DNA of 64,000 nucleotides from an archaeon (GTDB lineage: Archaea; Micrarchaeota; Micrarchaeia; Norongarragalinales; UBA97). Shown piece after piece: positions 11,184-44,505 of this stretch; position 1 is the first letter of the stretch, and each line of letters begins with the position of its first letter. Where the stretch lies: NCBI GenBank assembly GCA_020057405.1, contig JAGVFW010000004.1, positions 121,660-185,659 on the forward strand. The letters run 5' to 3'. The position numbers and the translations under genes were made by a program. Under the pieces are notes generated by a model that did not search any database, was not told where the DNA came from, and saw only the letters and a program-made list of their open reading frames with translations.

Positions 11184-11459
11184 AGGGGTGGCGGGTTGTA
11201 CTCCGCTTTCTGTTGTCCACGGCATTGGACTGATGCGGCCCTAAGCCTTGCACCGAACGCGGCGCGTTTCATTCCCGTTCCGGCCAAAGTCGCGCGGGTT
11301 CATCCTGCGACCGGCGGGATTCGTTTCTGTTCCGCGTTCTCGCCTGAAGCGAGGGCGCTTTACGCGCCGGAACTGCATTGCTGCAGGGTGAGCGGAAGTT
11401 CCTCAGCTGCGTCCCCTGTGAGGGGAACGCTACCGACAGCCGTGCGCCCACCACCCTTA
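11184..11459 (-). ncRNA. rnpB: RNase P RNA
   Basis: GAGGAACUUCCGCU and ACAGAAAGCGGAGUAC form P4 with a bulged U; termini pair as P1; TTTTTAA about 25 nt upstream. Confidence 0.88.
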
Positions 11460-21678: not shown

Positions 21679-24510
21679 CTAGCCGCGTTCGAGAACGGTC
21701 TGGCCGGCAACCGGATCGAGGTTGTAGAGGTCGTAGCCAACCCCGTTGTTCACGTCGCGGTTTCCTTGGAAGATGTTGCCTCGCATGCCTAGTATGTTGA
21801 AATTCAAGTCGCCAGAATAGTATCCCTGCAGGGCATAGTTGAGCCGATAGCCTTGCCTGCGTTCGTCTCCGTTTTGGTAGGTTGAACCGGATTGGCCGCA
21901 CTCGGCATACGCCCGGTTGGACACGTAGTTCGGGTCGACATAAACAGTCTGCAGATAGTTCCGACGAACTTCGTTACCAAGCACCTGGTTTTCGTTCCAT
22001 TGCCTGAAGTACTCGTTCAGAGCTAGTTGCATTACAGCGCAATACTTGCCGTTGGTGTTAGTTATTGAATTGTCGGCCAAGTAGTTTCGCATCACTGGCT
22101 GATAGAAGAACGGATTTCTTAGCGGGTCGTTAAAGCTCGTTGCGTCGATTGCGGGCGACCTCATGATAATCGGACCAGTTTCAGCAAGCGTGTTTGAGGC
22201 GTACACGACGTCATAAGCGCCGTTGTAAAGGTAGAGCGGCAGCATCACGTTCGAAAGCTGGTTGTTGTAGATTATGTTTTGGTAGGCGGAGTACGGCACG
22301 AGCGTGTAGAAGCTGCCGGCGGCGGGCGGGATGTCCCAAGGCTTGTCGACAGTCAACTGGCTGTTGGAACGCGAAGTCACTATCCGCACTTGGCCCGCTC
22401 CCTGGCCTGAAAGTATCGTCACGGCAGTCCGCGAGTTGAAGCCGGTCTTGCCCACCCAGTTCTTTGTGGAATCGGTCAGGTAGGTGGCGCCACCGCCTGT
22501 TGCAGTGCCGTAATCTTGAATCTGTTCAGTGTCCTCTCGCGCCTGTTGCGTCATGAACTCTTCTCCATCATTGCGGAATTGATCGTCGTTCTGCGGCCGC
22601 TCGCCAATGTTCTGAATACGGTTGTTGATTATCGCTGCGCCGGGGTCGAAAGAAAATTCTAGGCCGCCGGTTTCGGTCCGGTCGTTCTTGCGGATGCTGT
22701 TGTTCAATATGAAGGTGTTGCCGTCGAAGACCGCGTACTTGAAGTCGGTAAAGAGAATCCGGCCTGCCTCCCGGTCAAAGGTGTTTCCGCGGACAGTCAG
22801 GTACTTTCCGTATAATCCCCAAATGGGATACCACCTGCGGCCGGGATAACGGTAGTTTACGCCCGAAAGCAGTAGGTAATCCGAGTTGACGAAATTCATT
22901 GACTTGGAGGAAAGCGCGTTGATGTACAGGTTCTTGAGGATAATTTTGGAGGCATAAACGCTGCAGTAGGGCGTCTGGCAGCCGCCGCCCGAATCGGTCC
23001 TAATTGAGTGCTCAAGGGCATCACCGCGGTCGGGCGCTTCGGAGTAATTAACGTTAATCAGAGACAAGTCCATCGCGCCAACTCGCGTGGCGCCGTTCCT
23101 AAACGTGATTGCGCCATCGCAGCAGTTGCTGATGTTGTAGTTGACTTTAGTGAGCAGCGGACCGTCTCCCTTGAGAACCACGTTTGAAGGCAACCAAATG
23201 CCGCTGCGGATAAGGTAATCGCCCGTAGGAACGTAAACCGTACCGCCGCCAGCAGCTGAAGCGGCAGCAATGGCCGCGTTGAAAGCAGGAATTTCATTCA
23301 CCAAACCACTGCCTTGAGCGCCATAATCACGCACGTTAAACGTCCTTGACGCGATTTGCGCAAACTCGCCAGCCCAGAACACGTCAAGGCCCCAGGGGTC
23401 TGAAGAAACGGACGCGCCCCTAACAACGTCGTCTGAAAACGCGTCGCCAAAGGACCCTCCGAGACCGTTGTTGACCTTCACGCGGTAGTTAACACCTTGG
23501 GCAAGTGAAGGGGCAGTCAAGGCGAGGTAATAGGGCGTCGACTCCGAACTTAGCACGCTTGCCGCAATCGTGTTGTTCTGGGAATCAACAAACCAAGCTG
23601 AAGGCGAGTGACCCGAAACCTGCATGTTTCGACCGAACACCCTTACCTTGACTCCAGCGTAGGCATACTCCGCGTCAACCATAGTAACGCGCGGCTTGTT
23701 CGCAAACCACTCGTTGCTCCGGCCGCCTGACTGGTCCTCAAGCCAAATAGCATACAATCCAGCTGGCGTCGCTTGTGGAACTCGGCCCTGAAGCACAACG
23801 CTCGAATAACTCACGAACTGTATCTGAACTGCAGCGTCACGAACACCCGTGTCCGAAACACGCTGAACCATCAGCTTGGCTTGAGATTGCGGCGTAAACT
23901 TACCGCCAACGAGGTTGAACGCGTCGTCGGGGTTAAGCGACTCGCTCCCGTAATAAATTCTGGCGCCCGAATCGCCGGGCTCGGGGGTCGGGCTGGGTGA
24001 CGGAGATGAAGATGGAGTTGGGGATGGCGAACCGCTTGGCGTCGGCGAGGGAGAACTGTTTGAAGCGGGACTTGGCGAGCCAATGGGCGTCGGAGACGGC
24101 GAAACTGAAGGACCGGGCGTAGGCACAGGCGTAACGACCGCACCGCCGACGCAGTAAACTGGATCAACCAAAGTCACCCCGGTACAGGCGGCGAGACACT
24201 CATTCCAATAAGTACGGGCGTCAGAAGCGCACACGGGACGGTAAACCCCGCTGCAACCACAATTAACCGGAATCGGCGCAGGCGTCGGATTCACAGACGG
24301 GCTAGGCGACACCTCAGGTTGGGGTGTCGGGGTCGCGCCAACATCGCGAGTAGAATTCGTTATCCGGCGGATCAAGTCTGCTGCGTCGTGGAGACCCACG
24401 AACGCAAGGCCTAGAATAACGATGCCGAGCACGGTAAAGCCGATGAAAAGCAAAGCTGGCCGGTCCAAATCCACGAAAAAGTAACTGCAGAACACTATAT
24501 TTATCTTCAC
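21679..24510 (-). CDS. Membrane-anchored surface protein: Kazal domain, P/S/T linker, Ig-like region, pectate-lyase-like beta-helix
   Basis: TM helix; CGC..YRPVCASDARTYWNECLAAC; PSPTP repeats; FNVRDYGAQG...GGGTVYVPTGDY. Confidence 0.8.
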   Translation of the reverse strand: MKINIVFCSYFFVDLDRPALLFIGFTVLGIVILGLAFVGLHDAADLIRRITNSTRDVGATPTPQPEVSPSPSVNPTPAPIPVNCGCSGVYRPVCASDARTYWNECLAACTGVTLVDPVYCVGGAVVTPVPTPGPSVSPSPTPIGSPSPASNSSPSPTPSGSPSPTPSSSPSPSPTPEPGDSGARIYYGSESLNPDDAFNLVGGKFTPQSQAKLMVQRVSDTGVRDAAVQIQFVSYSSVVLQGRVPQATPAGLYAIWLEDQSGGRSNEWFANKPRVTMVDAEYAYAGVKVRVFGRNMQVSGHSPSAWFVDSQNNTIAASVLSSESTPYYLALTAPSLAQGVNYRVKVNNGLGGSFGDAFSDDVVRGASVSSDPWGLDVFWAGEFAQIASRTFNVRDYGAQGSGLVNEIPAFNAAIAAASAAGGGTVYVPTGDYLIRSGIWLPSNVVLKGDGPLLTKVNYNISNCCDGAITFRNGATRVGAMDLSLINVNYSEAPDRGDALEHSIRTDSGGGCQTPYCSVYASKIILKNLYINALSSKSMNFVNSDYLLLSGVNYRYPGRRWYPIWGLYGKYLTVRGNTFDREAGRILFTDFKYAVFDGNTFILNNSIRKNDRTETGGLEFSFDPGAAIINNRIQNIGERPQNDDQFRNDGEEFMTQQAREDTEQIQDYGTATGGGATYLTDSTKNWVGKTGFNSRTAVTILSGQGAGQVRIVTSRSNSQLTVDKPWDIPPAAGSFYTLVPYSAYQNIIYNNQLSNVMLPLYLYNGAYDVVYASNTLAETGPIIMRSPAIDATSFNDPLRNPFFYQPVMRNYLADNSITNTNGKYCAVMQLALNEYFRQWNENQVLGNEVRRNYLQTVYVDPNYVSNRAYAECGQSGSTYQNGDERRQGYRLNYALQGYYSGDLNFNILGMRGNIFQGNRDVNNGVGYDLYNLDPVAGQTVLERG

Positions 24511-24531: not shown

Positions 24532-25377
24532 ATGGCAATAGGGGAAATCGCGGGCTCGCTTGCGGCACTAGGCAGTGCCGGCAGCTCGCTCATCCAACGA
24601 AAAGTATTGCGCCATGACCGGACAAGCCACTTGAGCTACGCAGTGCTCTACAACTTCGGAGGCGCCCTCGTGCTCTTGCCGTTCCTCTACTATTACCCGC
24701 CCATTCCCACCAACCCGGCAGGATGGCTTTACGCAGGGATTGCAACCACGCTTTGGGCAATCATCGGCGTGCTGGGGTTTTTTAACACAAAGAAAGTCGA
24801 AGCACCTAAACTGATTGTCCTCAAGCGCTTCAAGGTCGTCGCAATCGCGGCAATGAGCGTATTTTTCCTAGGTGAAGTACTCTCGCCGCAAAAAATTGGT
24901 GCGCTCCTGCTCATAATCGCAAGCGCGCTCTTGCTCACTTACGATGGAAAGAAACTCAAGCTAGACCGCCAGTCACTCTTGGTGCTCTTCACGGCGTTTC
25001 TTACGGCAGGCGTGGTAATTGCGGACAAGGCCGCGCTTGCGTACTTCCCCCTGACTGCCTACGCGTTCATCGTTTTTCTCGTGCCTGGCCTCCTGGTCTT
25101 CGGCTACGCGAAAACGAGCTTCAACGCGCACTTGACCAACTTAAGCGGGCTCAAAAGGTGGGTTGCCGCCGACGTGCTCGTCGACGCGGCCACCTATTTG
25201 CTCATCCTCTTCGCGCTCCAAAACCTGTCCGCAACTTCAGTCGTGCTTTTGCAGGAACTATCGCTGCCCCTAGTCGCAGTAGGCGGGATAGTCCTGCTTC
25301 GGGAAAAGCGCGACTTGAAGAAAGTGGCCATGGCAGTCGCGCTTGCCCTCGCAGGCAGCGTGCTGCTCGTCATCTAG
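24532..25377 (+). CDS. EamA/DMT family transporter
   Basis: About 10 TM helices with repeated FLGE/LLRE motifs. Confidence 0.82.
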   Translation: MAIGEIAGSLAALGSAGSSLIQRKVLRHDRTSHLSYAVLYNFGGALVLLPFLYYYPPIPTNPAGWLYAGIATTLWAIIGVLGFFNTKKVEAPKLIVLKRFKVVAIAAMSVFFLGEVLSPQKIGALLLIIASALLLTYDGKKLKLDRQSLLVLFTAFLTAGVVIADKAALAYFPLTAYAFIVFLVPGLLVFGYAKTSFNAHLTNLSGLKRWVAADVLVDAATYLLILFALQNLSATSVVLLQELSLPLVAVGGIVLLREKRDLKKVAMAVALALAGSVLLVI

Positions 25378-25415: not shown

Positions 25416-25500
25416 GCAGGGGTGGCAGAGCCTGGCCAAATGCGATGGGTTTAGGGCCCATTCCCTTAGGGGTTCGAGAGTTCAAATCTCTCCCCCTGCA
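25416..25500 (+). tRNA. tRNA-Leu(TAG), intronless
   Basis: 85-nt cloverleaf with long variable arm; ATGGG-TTTAGGG-CCCAT anticodon arm. Confidence 0.95.
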
Positions 25501-25510
25501 TAGTGTAACT

Positions 25511-25534
25511 TACTAGAGTCTTCCCTCTCCAGCT
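25511..25534 (+). repeat. Cassette boundary site 1 (degenerate half site)
   Basis: TACTAGAGTC-TTCCCTCTCCAGCT. Confidence 0.6.
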
Positions 25535-25585
25535 TAGGCAGTCGCCTCAACGCGCCTAGTTGCGAGCAGTACGAGGATAATACTA

Positions 25586-25608
25586 TTTAAATATTAGAAT
25601 TTTCTAAT
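25586..25608 (+). promoter_or_regulatory. TATA box plus palindromic operator for the ArsR gene
   Basis: TTTAAATA followed by ATTAGAA-TT-TTCTAAT. Confidence 0.6.
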
Positions 25609-25615
25609 GTGTTAG

Positions 25616-25930
25616 ATGGACAAGGAGCTTTACAAGATTCATGCGGATGTTTGCAAGGTTTTTTCCAACCCGGCGAGGCTGGAAATCCTTGACTTGCTTA
25701 GGGGCAAGGGAATGTCCGTTTCCGAACTCACCAGGCGGACGGGGTTGAGTCAAGCAAACGTTTCGCAGCACTTGTCGGTAATGAAGTCCAAGGGCATCGT
25801 GTCTTACAGGCGGAAGGGAAAGAACGTCTATTACTCGCTTTCAAACCCGAAGGTAGTTAAGGCATTCGACTTGATGCGCGAAGCGCTGGTAGAAAACCTC
25901 GCCAAGCGCTTTAAAGGAGGGCGGAACTGA
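25616..25930 (+). CDS. ArsR/SmtB family transcriptional regulator
   Basis: FSNPARLEILDLL, SVSEL, SQANVSQHL and RRKGKNVYYSL motifs. Confidence 0.9.
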   Translation: MDKELYKIHADVCKVFSNPARLEILDLLRGKGMSVSELTRRTGLSQANVSQHLSVMKSKGIVSYRRKGKNVYYSLSNPKVVKAFDLMREALVENLAKRFKGGRN

Positions 25931-25931
25931 A

Positions 25932-26246
25932 ATGGCGAAACTGGCGGTAGTTATCAGTTCCAACGAGCCGGAAAAGGCGTGGAACGCTTTCAGGTTCTCA
26001 ACCCTGGCGCTTGGGAAAAAAGACGAAGTAAGCGTTTTTCTCATGAATAGTGGCGTCGAATGCCTTGTTGACTCGGAAAAATACGACGTCAAGGCGCTTT
26101 CGGACAAATTCGAGCAGAACGGGGGGAAGGTGCTCGCCTGCGGCACCTGCGTGAAAAACAGGAGCATGGGAAACGTCTGCGAGATTTCAAACATGGAAAC
26201 GTTCTACAACCTCGTCACCGAGAGCGATAGGGCAATTTACTTCTAA
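25932..26246 (+). CDS. DsrE/DsrF-like sulfur-relay protein
   Basis: EKAWNAFRF, VFLMNSGVE and LACGTC motifs. Confidence 0.82.
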   Translation: MAKLAVVISSNEPEKAWNAFRFSTLALGKKDEVSVFLMNSGVECLVDSEKYDVKALSDKFEQNGGKVLACGTCVKNRSMGNVCEISNMETFYNLVTESDRAIYF

Positions 26247-26257
26247 AACCAACCCGC

Positions 26258-26298
26258 GCTTCAGACTCTAGAAACATACTAGAGTCACTCCCCCTGCA
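26258..26298 (+). repeat. Cassette boundary site 2
   Basis: GCTTCA-GACTCTAG-AAACATA-CTAGAGTC-A-CTCCCCCTGCA. Confidence 0.85.
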
Positions 26299-26310
26299 TG
26301 TTCTATCTTT

Positions 26311-26898
26311 CTATAGTCTGCGCTGAAAAAGAATAGATTTCACTCGACTGCCCAGCCACGTGTGAAAATATGATTTAACCGGGGTGAATCCGTCGCGAAG
26401 AAATTGACTAATTCTAGGCTTGTTCGCGGCATGTGTATCGCTAAGTGCGTACGTACAACCAATAGAGCGAGCATGCGACAATCGGGCGTCAGTAAGCATG
26501 GTGGAGATTTTTTCTCGACGAAAGTCTCTATCTACGAATACTCCGTGCAAATGATAGTAGTTTCCAGGCTCAAGTAACTTATCGAATCGATGATTGTGAT
26601 ATTCGGGATCATAGCGCTCGCCCAATGCCATTCCAACAATACGGTTTCTCGAATTCCTTGCAACGAGAAGAATGGCACTGTCGCCACGTTTTTCACGCAA
26701 GGCCACCATCATCTTGGCTAATTTGGTTGCGTCCCCTCGTTTTTTCAATACCTTTTCGTGAGGGGGCTCAGTGTAACACTGAAAGAAAATGTCTCCGATT
26801 CTTCGCATATCTGTTCTTGAAGGATTCCGCCCAAGTTCGTGGATCGTGAATGTCAGTTGACTAGCACCAGCCATCGTGGGAACACCTGTAGATACCAT
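26311..26898 (-). CDS. GNAT family acetyltransferase
   Basis: IVGMA, LHGVFVDRDFRREKI and N...F..DGF motifs; more AT-rich than neighbours. Confidence 0.75.
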   Translation of the reverse strand: MVSTGVPTMAGASQLTFTIHELGRNPSRTDMRRIGDIFFQCYTEPPHEKVLKKRGDATKLAKMMVALREKRGDSAILLVARNSRNRIVGMALGERYDPEYHNHRFDKLLEPGNYYHLHGVFVDRDFRREKISTMLTDARLSHARSIGCTYALSDTHAANKPRISQFLRDGFTPVKSYFHTWLGSRVKSILFQRRL

Positions 26899-26947
26899 GA
26901 CATCTGGCCATTAAAAATATCACATTCAACGAAAATCCCGAGCACAC

Positions 26948-26987
26948 CTTCAGACTCTAGTACGTTTCTAGAGTTACTCCCCCTGCA
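26948..26987 (+). repeat. Cassette boundary site 3
   Basis: CTTCA-GACTCTAG-TACGTTT-CTAGAGTT-A-CTCCCCCTGCA. Confidence 0.85.
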
Positions 26988-27066
26988 GCTCGTATCTTTC
27001 CAAAGTCTTACGGTTCGCGCCAGTAGGCATATATAGCTGAATTACGTCTATTTACATGGTGATTGC

Positions 27067-27315
27067 ATGCGAACTACACTTGAATTCGGGGGTTTGCCCG
27101 AGGCTATCCTCCAGAAGGCTGTTGAGTTGGGCATAGCGCGGTCCAAGACTGCTGCGCTCAGGATGGGAATTTTCTCTTTAAACAAGGAATTTCATCTCGT
27201 GGAAAATCCCGAGGCTGAACTCGTTTCACGCAAGCTGGCCGAAGAAGAGAAGGAAATGAAGAAAAACAAAGTCAAGTATTTGAGCGAGAAGGAAGCTCTT
27301 TCAAAGTACAGGTGA
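27067..27315 (+). CDS. Putative antitoxin (RHH-like)
   Basis: MRTTL...KAVELGIARSKTAALR; directly upstream of a RelE-like gene. Confidence 0.65.
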   Translation: MRTTLEFGGLPEAILQKAVELGIARSKTAALRMGIFSLNKEFHLVENPEAELVSRKLAEEEKEMKKNKVKYLSEKEALSKYR

Positions 27316-27321
27316 GGCTCT

Positions 27322-27594
27322 TTGGACTTAACGCCTTACCGTCTCGACTTCAAGCCCGGTTGGGACCGCCACTTCAAGGACTTCGACAAGAGCGTACAGC
27401 AACTAATTCTGAAAAAGCTCGAGCACATGAAACAACCATTGCAAGCGAGAGGATTGCACAGCTCGCGTTACCGCGTAGAAGAAGCGGGAGGCTATAGGAT
27501 CGCCCTCATTCAAGACGACGAAAACAGAATCAAACACATTCATTTTGTCGGCAACCACCCGCAATACGAAAAATGGTATTCCGGAAAGGAATAG
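27322..27594 (+). CDS. RelE/ParE-like toxin
   Basis: 90-aa basic protein with FKDFDKSVQQLILKKL, GGYRI and FVGNH..YEKWY. Confidence 0.7.
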   Translation: MDLTPYRLDFKPGWDRHFKDFDKSVQQLILKKLEHMKQPLQARGLHSSRYRVEEAGGYRIALIQDDENRIKHIHFVGNHPQYEKWYSGKE

Positions 27595-27623
27595 CTTCAG
27601 ACTCTAGTCGCTCCCCCCCTGCA
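27594..27623 (+). repeat. Cassette boundary site 4 (internally deleted)
   Basis: GCTTCA-GACTCTAG-TCG-CTCCCCCCCTGCA. Confidence 0.75.
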
Positions 27624-27673: not shown

Positions 27674-28867
27674 ATGGCTACGGATTACTTCGGCAAGTCA
27701 GTTGAACTGCACAAGAAGCTAAAGGGCAAGATTTCGGTAGAGCCAAAAATCCGCATCAAGACACGCGAGGACTTGAGCCTCGTCTACACGCCCGGCGTGG
27801 CACAGCCATGCAAGGACATTGCAAAGAACCCCGAGCTCGCCTTCGACTACACGATTAAGGGAAATTCAGTCGCCGTGGTAAGCGACGGAAGTGCAGTCCT
27901 GGGGCTAGGCAACATTGGCGCCAAGGCAGCAATTCCAGTAATGGAAGGCAAGGCGCTGTTGTTCAAGGAATTTGCCGACATCGATGCTTTCCCATTGTGC
28001 CTTGACACGCAGGATGCAGAGAAAATCATCGAGACAGTCAAGGCAATTGCACCCGTATTCGGCGGAATCAACCTCGAGGACATTGCCGCACCAAAGTGCT
28101 TTTTTGTTGAAGAGTCGCTCCAGGAATTAGGCATCCCGGTGATGCACGACGACCAACACGGCACTGCTATCGTCGTTCTCGCTGGATTGTTTAACGCGAC
28201 CAAAGTGAGCGGCAAGCCCCTCGAGGCAATGAAGATTGTCATCAGCGGAAGCGGCGCTGCAGGAACTGCAATCGCCCGCATACTCTCCTGCTACGGCGAC
28301 TTTGACAAGACCTGCAAGAGCGTCAAGGACATAATCGTGGTTGACAGCAAGGGCATCGTCGTGACCGGCAGGCCGGACTTAAACCACGCCAAGCTCGAGC
28401 TGTCCACGCACACTAACGAGGAAAATGTCGAGGGAACGCTTAACGACGCCCTCGTTGGCGCGGATGTCTTTATCGGAGTCAGTGCGCCGGGAGTGCTTAA
28501 AGCAAGCCACGTTAAACTAATGGCGAAAAACCCAATCATCTTCGCACTCGCAAACCCTGTTCCCGAAATCATGCCCGACGAGGCCAAGGCGGCGGGCGCA
28601 GCCATCGTCGCTACGGGCAGAAGCGATTTTCCAAACCAAGTCAACAACGCACTCGCGTTCCCGGGCGTCTTCCGCGGCGCACTTGACGCAAAGGCCGTGC
28701 GCATCACCGACGGCATGAAAGTCGCAGCTGCACGGGCAATTGCCGCCTGCGTGAAAAAGCCATCAACCGAGGAGATAATTCCGGCAGTGCTTGACAGGAA
28801 TGTTGCAAAGAAAGTTGCCGAAGCAGTGAAGGCCGCCGCAATCAAGGAAGGCGTAGTGCGCCACTAA
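27674..28867 (+). CDS. NAD(P)-dependent malic enzyme
   Basis: YTPGVA, VMEGKA, HDDQHGT and GRSDFPNQVNN motifs. Confidence 0.93.
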   Translation: MATDYFGKSVELHKKLKGKISVEPKIRIKTREDLSLVYTPGVAQPCKDIAKNPELAFDYTIKGNSVAVVSDGSAVLGLGNIGAKAAIPVMEGKALLFKEFADIDAFPLCLDTQDAEKIIETVKAIAPVFGGINLEDIAAPKCFFVEESLQELGIPVMHDDQHGTAIVVLAGLFNATKVSGKPLEAMKIVISGSGAAGTAIARILSCYGDFDKTCKSVKDIIVVDSKGIVVTGRPDLNHAKLELSTHTNEENVEGTLNDALVGADVFIGVSAPGVLKASHVKLMAKNPIIFALANPVPEIMPDEAKAAGAAIVATGRSDFPNQVNNALAFPGVFRGALDAKAVRITDGMKVAAARAIAACVKKPSTEEIIPAVLDRNVAKKVAEAVKAAAIKEGVVRH

Positions 28868-44391: not shown

Positions 44392-44505
44392 TGCGGGGGA
44401 AGGGATTTGAACCCTCGGACCCCTAAGGGACAGGAACCTCAATCCTGCGCATTTGGCCAAGCTTTTTGAACAAAAAGCTTTTTGACCAGGCTCTGCCACC
44501 CCCGC
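44392..44505 (-). tRNA. tRNA-Leu(GAG) with a D-loop intron (21/22, 44453-44481)
   Basis: 29-nt hairpin insert; BHB-like GGUC/GGCC with AAA bulges; mature D-arm matches tRNA-Leu(TAG). Confidence 0.92.

Follow-up and report, generated by a model that had tools for sequence, protein, structure and literature searches.

The question raised by this locus is how three small and unrelated gene modules came to stand in a row at the 3′ end of a tRNA-Leu(TAG) gene in an archaeon of the Candidatus Micrarchaeota. The modules lie in a window of 64,000 nt, the whole stretch of DNA that was analysed, which corresponds to C11:121660-185659 of genome G000 (C-numbers denote contigs, other G-numbers the genomes of relatives). 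G000 comprises 1.22 Mb on 17 contigs and is estimated to be 90.6% complete; every genome compared here is a metagenome bin. A preliminary description had taken the modules for an integron-like array of cassettes, captured one after another at the tRNA by a recombinase acting in trans. We consider it likely that the 2.1-kb stretch consists of three miniature integrative elements lacking an integrase, cassettes that resemble cis-mobilizable elements (CIMEs) and that were accreted at tRNA-Leu(TAG) by a tyrosine integrase supplied in trans.

The tRNA-Leu(TAG) gene, the integration target (25416-25500, plus strand), is intact despite the array at its 3′ end, as judged by ARAGORN and by Rfam (tRNA, 49.8 bits). 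Its last 11 nt, CTCCCCCTGCA, form the core of a composite site, in which the core is preceded by a palindromic left arm, L1 (CTTCA-GACTCTAG-N7-CTAGAGTY-A), and followed by a right arm, R1 (N5-TATCTTT-CTAKAGTCT), the reverse complement of the first half of L1 plus its loop. Four sites, all on the plus strand, delimit the modules. Site A (25490-25521) is attL-like, with the core in the tRNA end (25490-25500) and R1 at 25501-25521, ending in ACTAGAGTCT. Sites B (26259-26319; L1 26259-26287, core 26288-26298, R1 26299-26319) and C (26948-27008; L1 26948-26976, core 26977-26987, R1 26988-27008) are attP-like. Site D (27595-27623) is attR-like and decayed, with half of L1 (27595-27607), a core carrying one mismatch (27613-27623) and no right arm; in alignment with its homologue in G016 it shows an internal deletion of ∼11 nt. 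The layout along the array is thus attL, attP-like, attP-like, attR, with start-to-start distances of 798, 689 and 636 nt. The insert lies between direct repeats of the tRNA 3′ end, and its insertion leaves the tRNA gene complete, as with integrative elements that target tRNA genes.

These repeats exceed chance expectation by a wide measure. The palindrome GACTCTAG-N7-CTAGAGT, at 26264-26285 and 26953-26974, gives four strand-wise matches in the window as compared with 0.02 expected, a number reached in none of 100 shuffles. Exact copies of the 11-mer CTCCCCCTGCA start at 25490 (in the tRNA), 26288 and 26977, and a fourth copy, at 27613, differs at one position; allowing up to one mismatch, the window has six matches where 1.27 are expected (0 of 100 shuffles), the remaining two, at 11382 and 55374, being without arms. 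Likewise, CTTCAGACTCTAG is found at 26259, 26948 and 27595 (three matches; 0.05 expected). The motif reported earlier as intact at two internal sites is therefore real, and the site does repeat the tRNA 3′ end, exactly at three sites and with one mismatch at the fourth. Two corrections are needed. Because conservation at the first three sites runs ∼21 nt past TGCA (N5-TATCTTTCTAGAGTCT-like), what had been called a degenerate site at 25511 is the right arm R1 and not a decayed palindrome. The last site had rightly been called degenerate, with the qualification that only the first half of L1 is kept, that it is ∼11 nt shorter and that it has no right arm. The palindrome loops at 26272-26278 (site B) and 26961-26967 (site C) are reverse complements of each other at six of seven positions (AAACATA and TACGTTT); the palindrome flanks hold one orientation at both sites, and sites in other genomes show both loop orientations.

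The cargo agrees with what had been proposed from first inspection, namely three modules (0.64–0.80 kb) unrelated to one another. Cassette 1 (25616-26246, plus strand; GC 0.495) encodes an arsR-family regulator (25616-25930; Pfam ArsR/HTH_5, 1.2e-14) and a DsrE-family protein (25932-26246; 9.4e-13). Cassette 2 (26311-26898, minus strand; GC 0.455) is inverted relative to the others and encodes a GNAT acetyltransferase (Pfam Acetyltransf_1, 7.3e-10), for which no close homologue was found among 68 genomes of the order (best 36% identity). Cassette 3 (27067-27594, plus strand; GC 0.476) encodes an 82-aa putative antitoxin (27067-27315) and a 90-aa protein (27322-27594), neither of which has a Pfam or NCBIfam match. 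A profile search of the PDB with the 90-aa protein gave weak RelE matches only (E 0.03–0.33). Its AlphaFold 2 (AF2) model, built with an alignment of 15 homologues, has a predicted local distance difference test score (pLDDT) of 85, and Foldseek returned RelE (2khe) as the top match (E 9.9e-6), with template-modelling (TM) scores of 0.63–0.71 for the first four matches; the fold search settles the identity of this protein as a predicted RelE-fold toxin. The cassettes have a foreign base composition: their GC content of 0.455–0.495 compares with 0.558 for the genome and 0.55–0.56 for the flanks, and falls within the lowest 2–5% of 700-nt genome windows. Cassettes 1 and 3 each show an AT-rich, TATA-like box 30–40 nt ahead of the first ATG, and it appears that the cassettes bring promoters of their own.

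Short-module arrays with toxin–antitoxin, GNAT and Fic cargo, with an imperfect palindrome at each junction, invite comparison with a true integron platform, in which the palindromes would be folded, single-stranded attC-like sites and an adjoining dedicated integrase would insert promoterless cassettes. The folding data do not favour this. Single-strand folds of site C are no better than shuffles (z −0.58 and −0.49); those of site B reach z −2.09 and −3.96, but here the pairing is of L1 with R1 across the core. Among 21 sites no covariation was detected in the 8-bp L1 helix, 232 of 500 shuffles paired equally well, and helix pair 12-24 is unpaired in 11 of the 21. A hairpin acting as a structured site is rejected on these results. 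Because the palindrome is conserved in sequence, with neither covariation nor a significant fold at site C, we read it as a probable protein-binding element of the arm type within an attP-like site. Canonical attC sites carry an R′ motif, which is not seen in the site described here. A site that holds a tRNA 3′ end also fits poorly with an integron. Cassettes of integrons are mostly without promoters, share one orientation and are expressed from the platform, from which the inverted cassette and the TATA-like boxes before the operons may depart.

The composite site recurs elsewhere in the genome. Of 18 exact copies of the 11-mer core in the 1.22 Mb of G000, 17 lie at the tRNA or at array junctions, and the only one without arms is at C2:37374. 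The palindrome of the window, here type I, is found at four places, all of them array junctions, while at least four further loci combine the same core with a second arm type. These type II arms, which prevail at most other loci of G000, consist of inverted repeats about CTCCCCC together with ∼50–110 nt more of conserved arm. On C6, six sites bound six cassettes, whose cargo includes two unknown proteins, a 923-aa Kazal/beta-helix protein (cassette 3), TauE with Fic, Fic, and VapBC. C16 has five sites and one decayed site; one of its units encodes a nucleotidyltransferase of the poly(A)-polymerase family, and two others, of 32 and 128 nt, are ‘empty’. C1 has two sites, and a single site lies at C11:90744. 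Altogether G000 holds at least 13 gene-bearing, site-bounded cassettes. DNA paralogous to that encoding the 923-aa protein lies at C6:72046-73107 and C10:21875-22179.

This distribution makes it scarcely conceivable that the site is an ordinary intergenic repeat, a terminator or a repetitive extragenic palindromic (REP)-like sequence that happens to resemble a tRNA end. Short palindromes directly after stop codons would suit such a repeat; confinement of the palindrome to four junctions, the association of 17 of 18 exact cores with the tRNA or with arrays, and the linkage of the sites to integrases in relatives (below) would not. Found only at array junctions and with changing cargo, the site is not a genome-wide REP or terminator.

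The two arm types bear on where strands are exchanged. Site C16:54533 joins a type II left arm to a type I right arm, and C6:79620 has the reverse combination, type I left and type II right. Such mixed-arm sites have only the 11-nt core in common; the exchange is therefore placed in the core and not in the spacer of the palindrome. The earlier proposal that inverted arms around a 7-nt spacer mark the crossover is thus probably wrong. The long right arm of another cassette, which encodes a 263-aa protein, is present at two other places, the C1 cassette and a unit running off the end of C16; the 263-aa protein bears no relation to the 129-aa protein that the C1 cassette encodes. No recombinase was found hidden among the cassette proteins: the 263-aa protein is without a Pfam or NCBIfam match, and its Atlas scores of 0.84 are below the useful range. 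Three contigs end in a common 99-nt sequence (C8:29220-29318, C12:4035-4133 and C16:59273-59371; 100% identity, one orientation), which in C16 begins 113 nt past a tRNA-like fragment with a core site. It is probably the end of an unassembled multi-copy element, an insertion sequence or similar.

Inverted ends raise a further alternative, that the units are target-specific transposons, such as derivatives of casposons or of another cut-and-paste element that resemble miniature inverted-repeat transposable elements (MITEs), with the core as target-site duplication and the arms as terminal inverted repeats. R1 is the reverse complement of the first half of L1 plus the loop, so that cassette ends are inverted; a type II site can be read as 11-7-11 inverted repeats around CTCCCCC; and casposons do target tRNA 3′ ends. 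Nevertheless, a search of the 68 order genomes found Cas1 (PF01867) in just 6, the array-bearing G000, G016, G004 and G028 not among them, on which grounds a casposon or casposon-derived MITE was rejected. Moreover, autonomous units invariably have a tyrosine integrase gene next to the arms, and the repeated segment is a tRNA end that restores the gene, as in recombination between attachment (att) sites. We regard transposition as highly improbable.

Sites of both types occur elsewhere in the order, and type I sites elsewhere in the phylum. Among 68 order genomes, 11 have the type I palindrome, which no control matched, and 14 have the core with a type II right arm, for which there was one control match. 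L1 followed by the core was found in 22 of 401 sampled genomes of the phylum, spanning at least eight families, often several times on one contig, again with no match in controls. Arrays stand at tRNA-Leu genes, or at 39–43-nt 3′ fragments of them, in G016:C6, G004:C3, G028:C39, G023:C28, G061:C10 and others, and hold different cargo (PIN, RelE-like, Fic and secreted proteins). A loose site pattern run over genome contigs matched at least 119 stretches, mostly of unrelated bacteria, and gained two further sites. Viral contigs gave no match to the type II pattern and 33 loci with the type I palindrome; as the core adjoined none of the 33, these are taken as chance matches. No syntenic copy of the locus was found in family relatives, where the EamA and malic enzyme genes that flank the array either lay on separate contigs or escaped the queries used, and in a metagenome scan anchored on the malic enzyme identity did not exceed 66% and the site was present in 0 of 80 loci. 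Two bins of different families, G066 (C1) and G036 (C53), are identical around tRNA-Leu(TAG) and the next 694-nt cassette; either a single contig has been assigned to both bins or the transfer is very recent.

Which enzyme could act on these sites? The window has no PF00589 match, as had been stated from the outset, and a tblastn search with 20 integrases of the order found no integrase remnants in the arrays of G000. With neither an integrase nor a remnant in the window or the arrays, the window units, none of which encodes its own integrase, are best regarded as non-autonomous relatives of integrative elements rather than as full ones. The only PF00589 integrase of G000 is on C17, beside tRNA-Phe, where an integrative element of 5.3 kb (C17:33521-38931) lies between 18-nt direct repeats that match the tRNA 3′ end. 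The element contains this 382-aa tyrosine integrase and open reading frames of 167, 389 and 460 aa, and its arms are unrelated to those of the arrays. In the tree the enzyme forms a separate long branch, 30–32% identical to the integrases associated with type I arms.

The latter are found in other Micrarchaeota. PF00589 tyrosine recombinases were detected in 33 of 68 genomes of the order, with no match in 35. Units that carry an integrase and are bounded by type I sites occur in G392:C12 (5.6 kb) and in G301:C29 (3.7 kb, in tandem with others). In G003:C14 an integrase element of 3.3 kb is followed by an integrase-less cassette of 954 nt with the same R1 sequence, and a type I unit of 1.6 kb in G164:C1 has a truncated integrase of 190 aa, which hints at an origin by decay. 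In G009:C69, R1 lies 81 nt before the start of an integrase. Integrase-bearing elements of one lineage thus share the arms of the window in four genomes, and in a fifth the arms lie next to an integrase. When 26 integrases were placed in a tree, the six beside type I arms fell into one clade (support 100/99) that spans four families, and the four beside type II-like right arms into another (94/96), so that integrase lineage and arm type go together.

The integrases also bear on two other systems. Against the integron-integrase model TIGR02249, for which the cut-off is 265 bits, the G000 integrase and two arm-linked integrases score 32.5, 48.4 and 44.7 bits. With no integrase beside the array, no attC-like fold or covariation, and arms that match the attP arms of ordinary integrative elements, a true integron is very unlikely, even though arrays akin to CALINs (clusters of attC sites lacking integron integrases) are described as common in archaeal integron surveys. 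Of the gene-capture claim made at first, iterative capture at a tRNA 3′ end, a recombinase in trans and a cargo of toxin–antitoxin and accessory genes are supported; an integron in the strict sense is not. A module dependent on Xer, of the pdif-like or IMEX type (integrative mobile elements exploiting Xer recombination), was rejected as well: the best scores against the XerA model were 86–97 bits as compared with a cut-off of 220, every integrase tested was far below it, and 35 of 68 genomes have no PF00589 match. On the minus strand of G046:C50 (11622-13485), a tRNA(-like) 3′ end with core and R1 starts a 5-kb unit that closes with L1 and core, and immediately upstream of that 3′ end stands a divergent integrase gene, an arrangement resembling an integron-like integrase beside its landing pad.

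Site-bounded counterparts of cassettes 1 and 3 exist in genomes of another family. Cassette 1 has 87% nucleotide identity over 729 nt with a copy in G029:C41, which follows a tRNA-Leu 3′ fragment with core and ends in L1 and a core with one mismatch (CTTCCCCCCGCA). The right end of the similarity coincides with the site; on the left it starts ∼33–72 nt past the core, owing to the different right arm. In G016:C6 cassette 3 has a counterpart (77% nucleotide identity over 604 nt) in the middle of a three-cassette array, among unrelated neighbours, and further homologues with sites lie in G013:C40 and G066:C34. The toxin is 76–82% identical across families, the genome of the same genus (76%) not being the closest, as compared with 39–50% for a DEAD-box helicase, the sole housekeeping baseline; judged from these sequences, cassette identity appears out of step with kinship. 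A homologue of the toxin–antitoxin cassette in G045 (C5:1800-6100) has, in place of the tRNA-Leu-type sites, flanking direct repeats of ∼40 nt (CCTAACCTG..TAGAGGC..GGCGTTT) at ∼1640-1680 and ∼2320-2360 of that stretch, which may represent a third site family.

Such sharing bears on the possibility that the cassettes are immobile fossils, three full-size elements that entered in tandem and were afterwards stripped, by deletion, of their integrases and most other genes, the remnants never having moved as small units. Several facts suit this account: site D is decayed, G000 has no cognate integrase, the 1.6-kb unit of G164:C1 with its truncated 190-aa integrase would be a plausible intermediate, and loss of the integrase after integration is mentioned in a review of archaeal tyrosine recombinases. 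However, no array of G000 retains an integrase remnant, and the same small cassettes are found, site-bounded, in other families at other array positions and beside other neighbours. Independent decay would not be expected to give identical boundaries again, nor does it readily explain sub-kilobase, single-operon units with intact arms or the ‘empty’ units of 32 and 128 nt. We think it unlikely that the cassettes arose in this way.

Integration of small units by an integrase in trans would proceed as follows. Each cassette comprises R1, one small operon, apparently with its own promoter, and L1, such that a circularized cassette would present an attP-like L1-core-R1 site. Strand exchange is envisaged inside the 11-nt core CTCCCCCTGCA shared with the tRNA end, and integration would therefore rebuild the tRNA. 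Three successive attP × attB integrations would leave an attL (tRNA plus R1), two L1-core-R1 junctions and an attR (L1 plus chromosome), the layout set out above. The enzyme would be a tyrosine integrase of ∼400 aa from the clade that lies beside type I arms in autonomous elements of 3.3–5.6 kb in other Micrarchaeota. Since a cognate integrase is not encoded in G000 as assembled, the cassettes would depend on one acting in trans, and those of the window, with their outermost site already decayed, are at present probably stranded. The anatomy of the sites, their recurrence in this genome and in the phylum, the tie to a single integrase clade, the cassettes common to several families and the foreign base composition are shown by the sequences; the point of exchange, mobilization in trans and present activity are inferred from them.

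A number of observations weigh against this account. No excision product, circle or empty site was seen, and neither the family relatives nor the metagenome scan yielded a close relative of the locus. The sole integrase of G000 sits in the tRNA-Phe element, with other arms and only 30–32% identity to the type I clade, and no cognate integrase was found in an assembly estimated to be 90.6% complete; 7 of the 17 genomes of the order with either site pattern also lack a PF00589 match, all seven being 69–89% complete. Site D is decayed. The same cargo can have different right arms, cassette 1 having R1 here and a type II-like arm in G029, and some cassettes have mixed arms (C6 cassette 5), which a strict scheme of one element with one attP does not predict. 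Homologues of the toxin–antitoxin genes are also found without these sites (G029:C12, G045:C5 and G063:C13). Finally, with metagenome bins as the material throughout, mis-binning is possible.

Among known systems, the best fit to the architecture seems to be that of non-autonomous, CIME-like relatives of tRNA-targeting integrative elements, akin to tycheposon tandem islands. Descent from an autonomous element by decay, and excision together with or by means of a neighbouring element, belong to the CIME concept; for the present units the truncated integrase of G164:C1 hints at such decay. CIMEs, as presented in PMC5704250, are without integration and transfer genes and keep attL and attR, which is the state of the units here. 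Accretion at tRNA genes in streptococci, as outlined there, shares tandem growth into a resident att site at a tRNA 3′ end and the need for the integrase of a related element. The units described here differ in being 0.03–2.9 kb and of one operon, whereas those of PMC5704250 are decayed integrative and conjugative elements (ICEs) or integrative and mobilizable elements (IMEs) of several kilobases; they also stand up to six in a row, recur across families, and reside in a DPANN host without a conjugation context. Tycheposons of Prochlorococcus, in the account of bioRxiv 10.1101/2020.12.28.424599, likewise combine a tyrosine recombinase, tRNA targets and a streamlined genome with tandem piles between partial tRNAs, remnants and niche-adaptive cargo. 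They bear integrases and are several kilobases long, whereas most units here are sub-kilobase and have none, and the repeat here is the 11-nt core with conserved arms rather than a partial tRNA alone. Tandem integration and loss of the integrase are both known in archaea, according to the review of archaeal tyrosine recombinases mentioned above.

Integrons, including those of archaea as described by Ghaly et al. (bioRxiv 10.1101/2022.02.06.479319), share ordered arrays of small cassettes, toxin–antitoxin and acetyltransferase cargo, one site per cassette, capture by a tyrosine recombinase and the frequent absence of the integrase. The present arrays depart from that description in having no IntI-specific enzyme, no attI beside an integrase, and no attC fold or covariation; the target is a tRNA 3′ end, the sites are double-stranded and attP-like with arms on both sides of the core, and the cassettes appear to bring their own promoters. 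In our best reading they are integrons in outcome and not in kind, with no IntI, no attC and a crossover probably in the core.

In pdif modules of Acinetobacter plasmids and in IMEX, small toxin–antitoxin or resistance modules between short sites are moved by a recombinase they do not encode, host XerC/D acting at dif-like 11-6-11 sites. The cassettes have in common with these the small modules, the short recombinase sites and a recombinase from outside the module, but no Xer-type enzyme was detected with the XerA model and the sites hold a tRNA end.

The literature searched contained no description of such arrays in Micrarchaeota or DPANN, and the main text of the archaeal integron preprint (bioRxiv 10.1101/2022.02.06.479319) does not mention Micrarchaeota, although its supplementary CALIN tables could bear on this point. 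Nor did that literature contain single-operon units of such small size, rows of as many as six, a pair of interchangeable arm families sharing a core, or cassettes common to several families of DPANN archaea. These archaea have tiny genomes and few recognized routes of gene exchange. The presence of at least 13 cassettes in 1.2 Mb, and of the same cassettes in other families, points to modular, site-specific exchange of accessory genes, among them those for a nucleotidyltransferase, Fic and GNAT proteins, toxin–antitoxin pairs, and a DsrE-family protein together with an ArsR-family regulator. It seems that a streamlined genome gathers and trades its accessory genes one small module at a time. 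Integron-like arrays could then arise from classical tRNA-targeted att recombination, without IntI or attC, and surveys restricted to attC or to integrase islands would overlook them. The sites and the integrase clade also offer compact natural attP/attB pairs, from an uncultivated lineage, for biochemistry.

A wider proposal, which we offer tentatively and with some doubt, is that Micrarchaeota run an integron-analogous capture system by ordinary att recombination. Cassettes would land at the 3′ end of tRNA-Leu or at copies of its final 11 nt; such single-operon units, with hardly more than an attP site and a promoter, would circulate between families, and a dedicated integrase clade, carried on a few small autonomous elements, would load, shuffle and unload them in trans. 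If this were true, genomes of ∼1 Mb would share an exchangeable pool of defence and stress genes.

The array is embedded in chromosomal DNA of ordinary composition. On its left lies a gene for an EamA-family transporter (24532-25377, plus strand; Pfam EamA, 8.5e-18), with a genome-like GC content of 0.563, and on its right the malic enzyme gene (27674-28867, plus strand; Pfam malic and Malic_M; GC 0.553). Further upstream, on the minus strand (21679-24510), is a 943-aa open reading frame with a cysteine-rich, Kazal-like N-terminal motif, recognized by eye and likened in the same way to the 923-aa protein of C6 cassette 3. Elsewhere in the window, 72 nt on the minus strand (44392-44463) are 81% identical to positions 14-85 of tRNA-Leu(TAG); the segment has a GAG-like anticodon loop, is without a 5′ acceptor strand and is not called by ARAGORN, and it may represent a pseudogene, one half of a split tRNA or a tRNA fragment that has been displaced.

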